NCBI GenBank assembly: GCA_028823175.1
Contig: JAPKBZ010000007.1
Coordinates: forward strand, 8,496-72,495
Source of the DNA: Myxococcota bacterium
GTDB taxonomy: Bacteria > Myxococcota_A > UBA9160 > UBA4427
Length of the DNA: 64,000 nucleotides
Direction of reading: 5' to 3'
The notes under the pieces: generated by a model
Database searches by the model: none
Seen by the model: only the letters and a program-made list of their open reading frames with translations
Told to the model about the DNA's origin: nothing
Made by a program: the position numbers and the translations under genes
Shown: positions 16,035-19,831 of the stretch, piece by piece
Layout of the letters: every line of letters begins with the position of its first letter
Numbering within the stretch: position 1 is the stretch's first letter

Positions 16035-17354
16035 CTAGGGGAGAAAGTCTTTGACCTTCTTGAGTTTCGCCGGGAGGTATTCGTCCATCACGTAGTTGAG
16101 CCCCCACATGGCCAGGGATTGTTGCTCGGCGCGAACGCCCATAGAGATCAGTTGTTCGATGGCCTTCTTCCAGGGCTTGTGGGCCTTGAAGAAGGGATCG
16201 TTCTTGAGGGCGTCCTTCGCGCGCTTGATGTCGACGTCGAGCAGGGGATGAGTCGGCAGCTCGTAATCGATGATGTCCTGGGGTGTCACCCCCAGGTAGT
16301 GAGTTTGGGGGACTGAAAAGAATTGCGAGATATGCGCTGCGTTCCCCGAACCCACTTTCAAAGTTCGGTAGATATTTGAGAAGCCATAGGGGTCGCAGTC
16401 AACGAAGGCAAAGACGGCGAGCTTGCACTCATCCGAGAGCTTGCGGATGAAGCGGCGCGTCGACCGGGTCGGGACGCCCGCCAGGGAAACCAGAATGCAG
16501 TTCTCGCGTTGCCAGAACTTGTGGCTCTGAAGCCTCTGGAAGATGCCGCCGGTTTCGATGGCGAGAATGAACTTGGCCTTGGTTTCGAAAGAGAGGTGTT
16601 CCACCGTCGAGGGAATCGAGTAGGCACCGGAGCCGAAGCGGGTACAGTCGATGCGCTCGACCTGCCCGGTCTCTATATCGGGATCGATTACGGTGAGTTG
16701 GCCTGCGACGGCGCCGCCGTGTTCGTCGGGGACATATCGGAGTTGCTCTCGCGAGACGCCCTGCATGGAAAACATGGCTTCGATGTCGTCCATCACGGTG
16801 TCGGATTCCGTTTGGTCGTCAAATTTCGCGGATTCCCAATTCTTGCTCTGGTAGTAGGCGTCTCGCTTGGTGGCGAAGTCGTTGGCTTCGATGAGGTCCT
16901 TCGAGAGTCCCATCAGGCGCAGGGTCTGGGCAAAGCCTCGGACTGTATTCACCGTTAGGGTTCGGGTCTTGGTCTGCTTTCCAATCTCGAAGTAGCCCTT
17001 CTTGGCAGAGTACGAAACATTGCCCAGGGACCGAATCGGGAATTTCAGATCGGGCTTGCGCGTTTTGAGGATTTCGGTCCTGATTGCCTCGGCGGTGCCG
17101 ACAATCAGGTTGACAGTCTTGGTGTCTCGATTCCCCCCCCGCGCTGCCTTCCGTCCTCGCGAAGCGGCGGCAGCCTTCTTTCGGCTCCCCTTTTTTCTTG
17201 AAGCCTTCTTCTTGCGGGCAGCCTTCTTAGCCGCCCCTTTTTTACTCGCAGCCTTCTTGCGCACCGCCGCCTTTCGCGGTGCGGCGGATTTTTTCTTTCG
17301 CGCCGCTTTCTTTGCGCCCAATTTCCGGGCCCCGGCTTTGCGTCGAGCAGTCAT
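16035..17354 (-). CDS. top6A: DNA topoisomerase VI subunit A (Spo11-like) with a Lys/Ala-rich N-terminal tail
   Basis: 5Y-CAP tyrosine context KRDAYYQS. Toprim ILAIETGG and VDCDPYG. ATG 17354 is preceded by an AAGGAG-like RBS and lies 20 nt after the top6B stop. The longer ORF to 17735 overlaps top6B and is rejected. Confidence 0.85.
   Translation of the reverse strand: MTARRKAGARKLGAKKAARKKKSAAPRKAAVRKKAASKKGAAKKAARKKKASRKKGSRKKAAAASRGRKAARGGNRDTKTVNLIVGTAEAIRTEILKTRKPDLKFPIRSLGNVSYSAKKGYFEIGKQTKTRTLTVNTVRGFAQTLRLMGLSKDLIEANDFATKRDAYYQSKNWESAKFDDQTESDTVMDDIEAMFSMQGVSREQLRYVPDEHGGAVAGQLTVIDPDIETGQVERIDCTRFGSGAYSIPSTVEHLSFETKAKFILAIETGGIFQRLQSHKFWQRENCILVSLAGVPTRSTRRFIRKLSDECKLAVFAFVDCDPYGFSNIYRTLKVGSGNAAHISQFFSVPQTHYLGVTPQDIIDYELPTHPLLDVDIKRAKDALKNDPFFKAHKPWKKAIEQLISMGVRAEQQSLAMWGLNYVMDEYLPAKLKKVKDFLP
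17136..17354 (-). repeat. Low-complexity imperfect tandem repeats encoding the K/A/R tail of Topo VI-A
   Basis: Encodes MTARRKAGARKLGAKKAARKKKSAAPRKAAVRKKAASKKGAAKKAARKKKASRKKGSRKKAAAASRGRKAARGG. The plus strand reads as gccttcttc-type repeats. Confidence 0.8.
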
Positions 17355-17374
17355 CGTCTCTCCTTGGGTTCCGC

Positions 17375-19162
17375 CTAGAGTTTCCGGGTGCGCTCCAGAA
17401 CGTCCGTCAGCTTGCGGGTCAATGTCCCGGTTTCGCGATCGCCCAGCGAGAGAATTTCCTGGAGTCCAACGGCGACTTGAGGGATGTATTTCTCGATGTA
17501 GGCCGCCTTCTTGGCCTCTTCGGCGACGCGTTTCTGTTTGCGGAGATAGCTCGTCATCTTGCGTCCGCACTCCTGGAGGGCAAAGCGGAACTCCTTGATG
17601 ATTTCCGGGTATTGGGCGACGGCATCCTTGCTTTCCGACGTAAAGGGCACCCAGACGCTTGCGATGTGCACCATGACCAGGAGTGGGCCGACGGGAAGGG
17701 CACCTTTGGGGTGTTGCACGAGGTAGGACTTCCAATTCGTCGCCGAGACAGCCCGGGTGATCGCACAGGCGCCTTGCTGGTATTGCAGGGGGACGCGGTT
17801 CGCGTAGCGGTAGAGCAGCGCGCTGTCGTCGCTATGCATCTCTCCACCGTACGCGAGGCCGACTTCGACCAGAAAGGGATTGCCCCGATAGACGGTGGGG
17901 CGGCGCGTGACGGCGGAGTAGAAATCTGCCTTGACCTCGGCTTTGAGTGCGGCGAGGATGAGATCTTCACCAATGGGGGCGATGCAATCCGTTGGCGGGC
18001 TCATGATCCGGGTCTGCTTGATGGCCTTGTAGACGGCGTCGGCCTCTTCCCGGCGCATGTCGCCTGGTCGGCGCTTGGGAGAAAGGCCCGCCCTCTCACA
18101 AATTTCGGCGGCCACCCGTGGCGAGACACGTGAGAAATCGTTGCGCAGGCAGCTGGCGAGATTGCGCGACCCGGTGTCTCGGAACATCTGCATCAACACC
18201 CCCAACTCGATTCCGTAGGGATGAGGCTGGATCTCGTCGGTATGCGCGGGAAGCTTTTTGGTCACCCGGGGAAAGACGTGCTCCGCGCCGTGTTCCTCGG
18301 CCGCCGGGGGGACGTAGGTGATCTGGGCATGGGGGTTTGCCAGCGAGATCTGGCGGATGTAGTTGTCCACCGAGTGCTGCCCACCCCGGTAATGACCTTC
18401 GAGTTCGATCTCGACCCGGGTGCCGTGATGCTTGGGCCACTTGACGACTACGTCCCGCTTAACCTGGGGCTTGTTCTTTTGGGTGTCGATAACGAGCTCA
18501 AACTCATGCGCCTGTTTTCGTTTCCCCGTTTTCGTCAGAATCTTGACCGGCTTGCCGGTGGTCAGCAGGCCGTACATGCCCGCTGCACTGATGCCAATCC
18601 CCTGTTGCCCACGGCTTTGGCGCAGGCGATGAAATTTGGAACCGTAGAGGAGTCGACCGAAAATTTTGGGTACCTGTTCGCGCACGATGCCCGGCCCGTT
18701 GTCCTCGAGAGCGACCCGGAAACGCGATTCGGCGAGTTGCTTGATCTCGATCCGGATTTCGGGGACGACTCCCGCCTCTTCGCAGGCGTCCAGGGCATTG
18801 TCCACCCCCTCCTTCACCGTGGTCAGGAGGGCCTTGGAGGGGTTATCGAAACCCAGGAGATGGCGGTTTTTGGCGAAGAATTCGGAAACCGAGATGTCCC
18901 GCTGCTTCTCGGCCATTTCGTCGGCAGTGCTCGAGGGACGCCTCTTCTTGGCCCCCGCCCCCTTCCTCGCGGCCTTCTTCTTGGGGGCAGTCTTCTTTTT
19001 AGGGGCAGCCTTCTTCTTGCGCGCCGCCTTCTTTTTTCCCGCGGCTTTCTTTTTTCCCGCCGCCTTCTTTTTCCTCGCGGCCTTCTTGCGGGCGCCCGCC
19101 TTTTTCTTCTTGGCTCCTGTTTTCTTCCTCGCGACGGATTTCTTTTTTTTCGGCTTTGCCAT
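17375..19162 (-). CDS. top6B: DNA topoisomerase VI subunit B (GHKL ATPase) with a Lys/Ala-rich N-terminal tail
   Basis: VSEFFAKNRHLLGFDNP, Bergerat N-box EGVDNALDA, G1 DNGPGI and G2 GQQGIGISAAG. About 520 aa excluding the tail, matching archaeal Topo VI-B size. Confidence 0.85.
   Translation of the reverse strand: MAKPKKKKSVARKKTGAKKKKAGARKKAARKKKAAGKKKAAGKKKAARKKKAAPKKKTAPKKKAARKGAGAKKRRPSSTADEMAEKQRDISVSEFFAKNRHLLGFDNPSKALLTTVKEGVDNALDACEEAGVVPEIRIEIKQLAESRFRVALEDNGPGIVREQVPKIFGRLLYGSKFHRLRQSRGQQGIGISAAGMYGLLTTGKPVKILTKTGKRKQAHEFELVIDTQKNKPQVKRDVVVKWPKHHGTRVEIELEGHYRGGQHSVDNYIRQISLANPHAQITYVPPAAEEHGAEHVFPRVTKKLPAHTDEIQPHPYGIELGVLMQMFRDTGSRNLASCLRNDFSRVSPRVAAEICERAGLSPKRRPGDMRREEADAVYKAIKQTRIMSPPTDCIAPIGEDLILAALKAEVKADFYSAVTRRPTVYRGNPFLVEVGLAYGGEMHSDDSALLYRYANRVPLQYQQGACAITRAVSATNWKSYLVQHPKGALPVGPLLVMVHIASVWVPFTSESKDAVAQYPEIIKEFRFALQECGRKMTSYLRKQKRVAEEAKKAAYIEKYIPQVAVGLQEILSLGDRETGTLTRKLTDVLERTRKL
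18938..19162 (-). repeat. Low-complexity imperfect tandem repeats encoding the K/A tail of Topo VI-B
   Basis: Encodes MAKPKKKKSVARKKTGAKKKKAGARKKAARKKKAAGKKKAAGKKKAARKKKAAPKKKTAPKKKAARKGAGAKKRR, i.e. AAGKKK/AARKKK units. Confidence 0.8.
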
Positions 19163-19310
19163 GACCGCTGCCCTTCGAGTAGCGACAGACGGACTGGCCT
19201 TGCCGCCTGGGGATCATGCCCGGTCGTGCAAGGCGGTCAAGGTGCCGCGCCATTTCGGCGCTCGGAGCGAGCCCACTGGCCTCCGAATTCGGTCATGGAG
19301 CCCGAGGGAT

Positions 19311-19604
19311 TCAGCAGTAGACGTGGGATTGGGTCGGATGGGGGCCGGGCACTTGGGAGAGCTTGATTCGGCCGGATTCGAGCATATGCGCCAGGGTGGC
19401 GAGGACTTCCTCGTCGGAATCCGCGACATCGGCAATCGCCTCGAGGACCTCGATGAAGGTGCAGTCGATCGCGTGGGCTGGGGCGTCCACGGGCGGTGCG
19501 ATCTGGGGCAGATCGCGGCGCTCCGCCACATCGGCGGCGAGGGCCGTGGGCCGAACGCTCGAGCGGTGGAGTCTTGCTGAGGACGAATGGGAAAGGCTTG
19601 TCAT
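19311..19604 (-). CDS. Small acidic hypothetical protein (97 aa) upstream of top6B
   Basis: ATG 19604 is preceded by an AGGGAG RBS. Sequence MTSLSHSSSARLHRSS...IEVLEAIADVADSDEEVLATLAHMLESGRIKL.. The longer ORF to 19820 crosses the AT-rich promoter region and is unlikely. Confidence 0.45.
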   Translation of the reverse strand: MTSLSHSSSARLHRSSVRPTALAADVAERRDLPQIAPPVDAPAHAIDCTFIEVLEAIADVADSDEEVLATLAHMLESGRIKLSQVPGPHPTQSHVYC

Positions 19605-19639
19605 GATCTTGCTCCCTTGGGTTTGCAGTATTCCCGGGA

Positions 19640-19740
19640 TTCGCCGGTGCGTTCCCGTCGGGTGTATATCAGTGCACATTTCATGCCTGAAAGTTTCGAA
19701 GAACTGAAGAAGAATAAATTCCTTTAAAATCAAATGATTA
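19640..19740 (-). promoter_or_regulatory. AT-rich putative promoter region for the small ORF / top6BA transcription unit
   Basis: The only markedly AT-rich stretch for several kb (…tttcgaagaactgaagaagaataaattcctttaaaatcaaatgatta…). It lies between the comM stop and the small ORF. I cannot assign exact -35/-10 boxes. Confidence 0.3.
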
Positions 19741-19831
19741 CGCCTCCCCCGGGCGGTGGATGGCTCTGGCCCTCGGAGCCGAGTGGTCGTAGGGGACCGC
19801 GAGGGCTGCAATTCGACCACATCCGGTCGGG

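Follow-up and report, generated by a model that had tools for sequence, protein, structure and literature searches.

Polycationic N-terminal tails on both subunits of a Myxococcota DNA topoisomerase VI, with a probable role in DNA tethering

The lysine repeats at the C-terminus of Streptomyces topoisomerase I (TopA) stabilise the complex between enzyme and DNA, and their removal impairs processivity and sporulation (PMC5714199). Among archaeal DNA topoisomerases VI (Topo VI), the M. mazei enzyme is distributive, and its KGRR loop is essential for strand passage and for the sensing of DNA crossings (PMC5922973). Two plant proteins, BIN4 and RHL1, show co-evolution with Topo VI and DNA binding in vitro (PMC9665070). 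We analysed a 64,000-nucleotide (nt) stretch of a Myxococcota bacterium genome (GenBank assembly GCA_028823175.1, contig JAPKBZ010000007.1, positions 8,496 to 72,495 of the forward strand; hereafter the window), in which the genes of the two Topo VI subunits, top6B and top6A, form an operon. The reading that we favour, and hold to be probable, is that both subunits have gained genuine, translated, disordered and polycationic N-terminal extensions whose likeliest role is non-specific electrostatic tethering to DNA. The genes and their tails are as follows (amino acids, aa; open reading frame, ORF).

17375..19162, minus strand: top6B, an ORF of 595 aa, with an N-terminal tail followed by GHKL ATPase, H2TH and transducer domains.
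16035..17354, minus strand: top6A, an ORF of 439 aa, with an N-terminal tail followed by 5Y-CAP/WHD and Toprim domains.
18917..19162, minus strand: polycationic tail of Top6B, aa 1-82 (K/A-rich aa 1-75 at 18938-19162), from sequence, composition, AlphaFold2 and homologues.
17130..17354, minus strand: polycationic tail of Top6A, aa 1-75 (K/A-rich part coded at 17136-17354), from the same four lines of evidence.
18963..19109, minus strand: imperfect tandem repeat of AAGKKK-type units in the Top6B tail, from Tandem Repeats Finder.

By the ORF list and the sequence, the N-terminus of Top6B reads MAKPKKKKSVARKK and that of Top6A reads MTARRKAGARK. A sequence-only reading of the window had placed the K/A-rich stretches at 18938-19162 and 17136-17354, and both coordinates match the ORFs and the sequence exactly. 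The B tail (aa 1-82) contains 34 K, 7 R, 21 A and 2 acidic residues (41% K, 26% A; net charge +39), and the A tail (aa 1-75) contains 22 K, 12 R, 23 A and no acidic residue (29% K, 16% R, 31% A; net charge +34). An A2B2 enzyme would carry four such tails, as that reading had proposed, with net charges summing to about +146. Pfam, NCBIfam and Protein Data Bank (PDB) profile matches all start at residues 69-85 in both proteins, so that the tails fall outside every known domain. AlphaFold2 gave residues 1-79 of Top6B a predicted local distance difference test score (pLDDT) of 36-47 with no secondary structure, and modelled residues 1-70 of Top6A as coil (block-mean pLDDT 42-48), with the first helix beginning at residue 75. 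Both tails are thus predicted to be intrinsically disordered. The core models were of moderate quality (mean pLDDT 65 and 56, from shallow alignments), and the models were used for tail disorder only.

Imperfect repeats had been proposed for both tails, and this held for one of them. The B tail contains an array with a period of 18 nt (3.4-4.4 copies, 79-83% matches) and of 36 nt (4.1 copies), which corresponds to 6- and 12-aa units, while the repetitiveness of the A tail is limited to its composition. At the start of the B tail lies a run of 8 A (19133-19152, minus strand; ccgAAAAAAAAgaaa, giving KKKK), where transcription or translation could potentially slip. When the window was scanned in six frames, K-rich polybasic stretches appeared solely at the two Topo VI N-termini, and 638 kb of orthologous loci contained 37 such stretches in Topo VI tail regions and 1 elsewhere. 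The K-rich tails are therefore specific to Topo VI, at least locally; a general bias of the proteome towards K-rich tails was considered and was not seen in the window or in the related loci.

We conclude that the tails are genuine parts of both subunits, and neither assembly nor annotation artefacts. The same locus recurs in four assemblies made independently from different samples, and top6B differs among them by 0-1 nucleotides apart from the variant described next; this excludes an assembly artefact. In the fourth assembly (L083, where 1211-2980 corresponds to 17375-19162 of the window) Top6B is 6 aa shorter, having lost one AAGKKK unit in frame and acquired one A-to-V change, and Top6A is identical. 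This shows a polymorphism of repeat units that preserves the frame, with a tail length that varies in the environment. Tails of at least 25 aa are present in 112 of the 120 best B homologues (74-97% core identity), and the other 8 have less than 25 aa. The 32 closest (at least 79% identity) all have basic tails of 60-114 aa, with 41% K+R, 2.3% D+E and a K/(K+R) ratio of 0.69. Of the 120 best A homologues, 5 have no tail; the tails of the other 115 measure 21-98 aa, nearly all start M-A/T-A-R-K-K, and they mostly contain 0-1 acidic residues in up to 98 aa. The open basic frame and the scarcity of acidic residues persist over 70-100% core identity. Had the tails been missing from all close orthologues, the sequence-only reading would have regarded them as artefactual; hundreds of orthologues retain them.

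The same reading had named Met83 (MAEKQRD) as a possible downstream start of Top6B. This residue is Leu in many tailed orthologues (DLAAKQRD, ELATKQRD), and no Shine-Dalgarno (SD) sequence precedes it in the window, which argues against a start at this site. For Top6A it had seen no plausible internal start. This needs correction, as a GTG at codon 31 is preceded by an SD-like sequence, although a start there would still give a basic tail of 45 aa.

To compare the two tails across lineages, we scanned one genome per species, which gave at least 575 loci with a close relative, and analysed the best 80. By their titles, these come from metagenome-assembled genomes (MAGs) of Myxococcota/'Deltaproteobacteria', Planctomycetota, 'Eisenbacteria' and Acidobacteriota; some third-party assembly labels, e.g. 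'uncultured Spirochaetales', are probably unreliable. Genes were extracted from raw DNA, starts were picked by a heuristic combining SD sequence and composition, and a neighbour-joining (NJ) tree was built from the concatenated cores. In the non-Myxococcota loci the A head is 10-25 aa long (with one exception of 61 aa) and the B tail is mostly 57-129 aa, of K/S-rich or mixed composition. In the majority of Myxococcota-type enzymes the A tail measures 26-62 aa (+4 to +19) and the B tail is moderately basic. Long, highly charged double tails (A +21 to +48, B +7 to +45) mark one monophyletic Myxococcota subclade, which on the core tree comprises the window, L001-L003, L007, L009, L016, L025, L026 and L080. 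L004, which is absent from the tree, has long double tails too (A +39, B +35). The long double tail is the mark of one Myxococcota subclade rather than a feature shared by bacterial Topo VI at large. K/A tails were not seen in the archaeal reference structures or in full-length relatives at or below about 40% identity retrieved with the A core from a representative library, in which the Myxococcota clade was reduced to one representative and the list consisted mostly of fragments.

The net charges of the A and B tails rise and fall together. Their Spearman rho reached 0.79 among the 34 loci of Myxococcota type (p=3e-8) and was 0.32 when all 54 loci were taken together, and phylogenetically independent contrasts gave r=0.56 (53 contrasts, p=1e-5), with much of the signal stemming from one clade. 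The comparison of orthologues that the sequence-only reading had suggested thus shows tails that are conserved and co-vary between the subunits. In 16 loci no top6B was found within the top6A flank, which covered up to 4 kb per side and less on some shorter contigs (L049-L052, L055, L058, L061, L062, L066, L070, L071, L073, L075, L076, L078 and L079). These loci are labelled Acidobacteriota, Polarisedimenticolaceae or 'Eisenbacteria' or are unnamed, and their A head is mostly short and of the MKSPQAEKAK type. Apparently, top6A and top6B are not always adjacent.

The tails are attached to enzyme cores that are canonical Topo VI, and family membership is secure for both subunits by domain, structure and motif matches. 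Top6B matched Pfam HATPase_c and Topo-VIb_trans (PF09239, 202 bits), as well as NCBIfam NF003218 (686 bits, cut-off 274) and TIGR01052 (566 bits, cut-off 381). Its residues 79-572 align in HMMER with residues 5-495 of M. mazei Top6B (2q2e_B, E=1e-158). The Bergerat motifs N, G1 and G2 (KEGVDNALDACEE, EDNGPGI and GQQGIGISAA) match those of M. mazei and are invariant in 36 homologues, and FTSESKDA (the SESK switch-lysine motif) and NWKSY (WKxY) are conserved. Top6A matched Pfam TP6A_N (PF04406), Topo_VI_alpha and TOP6A-Spo11_Toprim (PF21180, 195 bits), and its residues 134-439 align best with M. jannaschii Top6A (1d3y_A, E=4e-107). Here, RDAYYQSKNW aligns with REAYYVSKNW, in which R164, Y167 and Y168 of the window protein are invariant in 37 homologues, and the Toprim motifs AIETGG and FVDCDPYG are conserved. 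The second Y of AYY occupies the place of the catalytic residue:

16851..16853, minus strand: codon of Top6A Tyr168, which aligns with the catalytic tyrosine of archaeal Top6A (1d3y_A) and is invariant in 37 homologues.

We take Tyr168 to be the equivalent of M. jannaschii Tyr103. Top6A fell below the NCBIfam equivalog cut-off (best model NF003337, 459 bits against 675). By its Pfam domains it is nevertheless clearly a Top6A, of a bacterial branch that the archaeal equivalog models do not cover. One cluster of bacterial Topo VI has been placed close to Methanococcales (PMC11302465), and the affinity of the window Top6A to the M. jannaschii protein agrees with that placement. With the catalytic motifs intact, the tails are best described as additions to an otherwise complete enzyme.

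We infer DNA binding by the tails, their geometry and their effect on catalysis from sequence and from analogy with known systems. In the favoured reading, the extensions consist of short Lys/Ala units and lengthen or shorten by in-frame gain or loss of repeats, with selection holding K+R at about 40-45% and acidic residues near zero. Lys is preferred over Arg (K/(K+R)=0.69 in the close B homologues) although the genome has about 63% GC, which speaks for selection and against mutational drift. As the Top6B alignment begins at M. mazei residue 5, the B tail would join the N-terminal strap region of the GHKL domain; two B tails would then sit at the straps of the ATPase gate, on either side of the opening through which the transported duplex enters. 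The N-terminal region of A in archaeal holoenzymes contacts the long helical portion of the transducer of B (PMC9665070), which would place the two A tails, ahead of the N-terminal helix of A, beside the long bent path of the G-segment. This path covers 74 bp in recent cryo-EM work (PMC13040014). Four flexible tails with about +146 charges could raise affinity, on-rate and dwell time, keep the enzyme on the nucleoid, and help to capture or hold a second duplex. The sequence-only reading had suggested nucleoid tethering, capture of DNA crossings or condensate targeting. In evolution, the tethering mode would belong to one subclade, namely that which lost the clamp-like motif described next.

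The N-terminal frames of related Top6B proteins contain a second type of element. A QLSLF/QxSFxF-type motif was found in 37 of 58 Top6B upstream frames, with 0.7 expected from shuffles, and in 3 of 66 Top6A frames, with 1.0 expected. Its carriers comprise most bacterial Top6B tails outside the clade of the window, and the motif lies within the disordered region (L012-L077, e.g. L056, L045, L018, L034 and L060; also the public proteins P0055-P0120). Planctomycetota-type B tails have QLSLF, QLDLF, QADLF, QGGLF or QASLF, and Eisenbacteria/Acidobacteriota-type tails QLEVDF, QLEVPF, QLEVLF, QMSVDF, QISMF or QIELPL. Myxococcota-type tails have M-x-[DE]-Q-E-S-F-A-F at the extreme N-terminus, or QLVLGL. 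Bacterial proteins that bind the beta sliding clamp follow the consensus QL[SD]LF, QxxLxF or QLxLxL, examples being the N-terminus of Hda and QLVLGL of Pol IV. The other bacterial Top6B tails fit this consensus, which makes them putative clamp binders. The motif was found in neither window tail and in none of the B tails of the long-tail clade.

The NJ tree implies that the motif is ancestral and was lost in the clade of the window. A second clade without the B motif consists of L010, L019 and L023. The A tails of L010 and L023 carry QASLPF or QTAMHF, then GPKR, and account for two of the three A hits; that of L019 is similar and lacks the Q. This suggests that the motif may have moved from B to A in this clade. 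Myxococcota-type loci that lack the motif have A tails with a median net charge of +25, compared with +10 in those that carry it (Mann-Whitney p=1e-5); for the B tails the medians are +22 and +8.5, respectively (p=0.014). In archaea, Topo VI of Pyrococcus abyssi is reported to co-immunoprecipitate with PCNA and RFC (PMC9665070). The literature searched, outside which most subscription journals lay, contained no paper that connects the bacterial enzyme with the clamp. As a tentative and rather doubtful extension of the DNA-tethering proposal, bacterial Topo VI might ancestrally have been recruited to the replisome through a clamp motif in Top6B, as a counterpart of the archaeal association with PCNA. 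The lineage of the window would have swapped in H1-like polycationic DNA tethering on both subunits, and a sister lineage would have moved the motif to A. The N-terminal disordered regions of both subunits would then constitute one interchangeable targeting module of the holoenzyme.

Several points weigh against DNA tethering as the role of the tails. RNA, polyphosphate and acidic lipids are polyanions that would bind such tails equally well. The Topo VI literature searched reports no biochemically characterised bacterial enzyme, and the core activity is attributed by homology. Starts in the 80 loci were picked heuristically, and some B starts were re-picked with the help of the motif, which introduces error into tail lengths and charges; the NJ tree is likewise approximate. 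The link between motif loss and long tails goes back largely to one evolutionary event in one clade and may be a coincidence. Tandem Repeats Finder detected no array in the A tail at a score of 30 or more, and an isoform starting at B Met83 or at A GTG codon 31 may be made in the host organism.

The first of these points can be turned into an alternative, in which the tails target a polyanion other than DNA (polyphosphate granules, RNA or acidic membrane lipids) or drive partitioning into condensates, and so set the location of the enzyme and not its grip on DNA. Electrostatic tails are unselective for DNA, and the composition here is H1-like; the H1-like protein AlgP has been reported to act on the spacing of polyphosphate granules (PMC9239181). 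However, the tails sit on both subunits of an enzyme that acts on DNA, in related lineages this disordered region of B carries a motif resembling a tether to the replisome clamp, and the lysine repeats of TopA, the closest functional precedent, bind DNA. We therefore regard a target other than DNA as unlikely.

Alternatively, neutral slippage of AAG/GCC-rich repeats could have produced tolerated extensions without function. The 18/36-nt tandem structure of the B tail, the polymorphism in unit number between samples and the fast turnover of tail length and sequence among close relatives, whose cores are 90-97% identical, would all be expected from such expansion. It does not readily account for the expansion of both subunits in the same clade, with charges that co-vary after phylogenetic correction, nor for the near exclusion of acidic residues. 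Lys is moreover favoured over Arg at a GC content where Arg codons suit the composition better, the tails are essentially limited to Topo VI across the 638 kb of loci, and the A tail has no detectable array. Neutral expansion is, on these grounds, quite unlikely and ranks just behind a non-DNA polyanion.

A further proposal, compatible with DNA tethering, concerns the basic loop of the T-segment cavity, which is degenerate in the window.

18374..18388, minus strand: degenerate KGRR loop of Top6B, R259-H263 (RGGQH), from the HMMER alignment to 2q2e_B (VKGRRQS against Y-RGGQHS).

In this proposal the two B tails, each of +39 and attached to the N-terminal strap of a GHKL domain, repel each other and hinder dimerisation of B until a captured T-segment neutralises them, so that charge gating substitutes for the KGRR loop. 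The loop essential in M. mazei (PMC5922973) is indeed replaced here, and the B tail runs straight into the N-terminal strap, where the alignment with M. mazei Top6B sets in at its residue 5. The loop reads RGGQH in all Myxococcota-type loci and KKGK or KRGR in Planctomycetota-, Eisenbacteria- and Acidobacteriota-type enzymes. RGGQH thus also occurs in enzymes with weak or net negative B tails (L012, +1; L021, -5), which unties the change in the loop from long tails, and the proposal leaves the A tail unexplained; we consider it improbable. Compensation for the degenerate loop was also considered as a clade-specific explanation of the tails and was rejected, RGGQH being common to all Myxococcota-type enzymes whatever their tail charge.

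Highly improbable, finally, is a downstream start in both genes (Met83 in B, an internal codon in A) that would leave the K-rich codons as untranslated leader or intergenic repeat DNA: Met83 is present in the window and its closest relatives, some database entries are annotated short (the 8 of 120 B and 5 of 120 A homologues mentioned above) and the SD sequence ahead of the B ATG is weak, but against this stand the replacement of Met83 by Leu in many orthologues with an open basic frame upstream, the lack of an SD sequence before it, the conserved A head MAARKK with AGGAG ahead of it, the natural length variant that stays in frame, the frame and near absence of acidic residues kept at 70-100% core identity, and the 45-aa tail left by the sole internal candidate in A.

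With respect to the locus, top6B and top6A are adjacent on the minus strand with a gap of 20 nt and constitute a two-gene operon. Three candidate signals for its expression were found:

17360..17364, minus strand: SD sequence AGGAG, 5 nt before the top6A ATG and 10 nt past the top6B stop (17375-17377); SD score 5.
19171..19176, minus strand: weak SD-like GAAGGG, 8 nt 5' of the top6B ATG; SD score 4.
19213..19240, minus strand: sigma-70-like promoter match TTGACC-16-CATGAT, about 50 nt 5' of the top6B ATG.

The position of the promoter match would put the tail codons within the mRNA. As the scan of the 4-kb region for promoters and terminators gave this single promoter match where 0.7 would be expected by chance, it is weak evidence and not above chance. 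The neighbouring genes are homologues of rfbA and rfbC, a Fur-family gene, a MatE transporter and a Mg-chelatase/ComM-like ATPase. A reading of the locus as a defence system (Wadjet JetD, Gabija Toprim nucleases) was rejected: PADLOC returned a Toprim-level match of 22 bits to JetD for A and nothing for B, and the context is non-defence. The Mg-chelatase/ComM-like gene is separated from top6B by a small ORF at 19311-19820 (minus strand) that matched no profile of Pfam or NCBIfam; in L081 gene callers give a 97-aa product for it at 751-1044. The Top6A sequence is identical to the public protein P0121 ('Myxococcota bacterium' MAG). The public records P0121, P0122 and P0158 name Top6A 'DNA topoisomerase IV subunit A', after the names of the NCBIfam NF00333x models; the protein so named is the A subunit of a type IIB Topo VI and not ParC.

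The sequence-only reading had been unaware of any description of this architecture, and a full-text literature search, outside which most subscription journals lay, found none either. Two phylogenetic studies of Topo VI make no mention of lysine-rich or disordered N-terminal tails in the bacterial enzymes (PMC11302465, PMC9665070). Bacterial Topo VI is widespread, with a close relative in at least 575 species-level genomes. Co-evolving polycationic tails would offer a simple way of tuning a type IIB topoisomerase, in which affinity, processivity or crossing preference could change. The comparative pattern further provides a hypothesis for the cellular targeting of bacterial Topo VI, either by a clamp-binding-like motif or by direct tethering to DNA.

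Compared with archaeal Topo VI (M. mazei 2Q2E, S. shibatae 2ZBK and M. jannaschii 1D3Y), the window encodes the same two-subunit type IIB enzyme with motifs common to both. The archaeal proteins begin where the window proteins reach residues 69-85, and are thus without polybasic tails. The window Top6B in turn lacks the C-terminal domain of M. mazei B (595 against 621 aa, the alignment stopping at residue 495 of 621), and does not retain the basic KGRR loop. In plants, BIN4, RHL1 and the N- and C-terminal extensions of TOP6A and TOP6B likewise supplement the Topo VI core with extra elements that bind DNA or partners. The plant elements are separate folded proteins acting in trans, whereas the window has disordered tails in cis on both subunits. 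A distant Top6A homologue, P0351 (746 aa), has about 400 N-terminal residues of tandem helix-hairpin-helix-like repeats (GVGEKTVKSLLKAGYDSPEKIA) with K-rich linkers, and, judged by its sequence, would equip the Top6A N-terminus with non-specific DNA-binding modules of another kind. In other distant Top6A homologues of 790-970 aa (P0268, P0270, P0279, P0283, P0284, P0299, P0302 and others) the two matches to the query lie about 400 residues apart, which is consistent with a large insertion, possibly an intein.

The myxobacterial lineage uses H1-like modules on DNA-associated proteins, such as some CarD. The tails resemble the C-terminal domain of histone H1, chlamydial Hc1/Hc2, Pseudomonas AlgP and the H1-like domain of myxobacterial CarD in being rich in K, A and P, of low complexity, cationic and predicted to be disordered. 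The H1-like proteins are nucleoid proteins, whereas the module in the window is an appendage of an enzyme. The likeness to H1, Hc1, AlgP and Hlp that had been read from the sequence extends to composition and not to homology: the only match to an H1-like family was to PF07382 (HC2), at 17.6 bits against a cut-off of 40 and for A only, and Pfam detected no family-profile match on the B tail and no linker-histone globular domain.

The best functional analogue is actinobacterial TopA (Streptomyces, Mycobacterium), which likewise carries a disordered Lys/Ala-rich repeat tail on a topoisomerase of a GC-rich bacterium. TopA is a monomeric type IA enzyme with a C-terminal tail that ends in acidic residues. 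The window Topo VI is a type IIB heterotetramer with N-terminal tails on both subunits; the two share no sequence homology, and by analogy the tails of Topo VI would serve a similar function. They would thus extend the lysine-repeat theme of actinobacterial topoisomerase I to a second, unrelated class of topoisomerase. Lysine-repeat tails of a DNA-tethering type are known on topoisomerases, and what appears to be new here is that they are N-terminal, belong to a type IIB enzyme and occur on its two subunits together.

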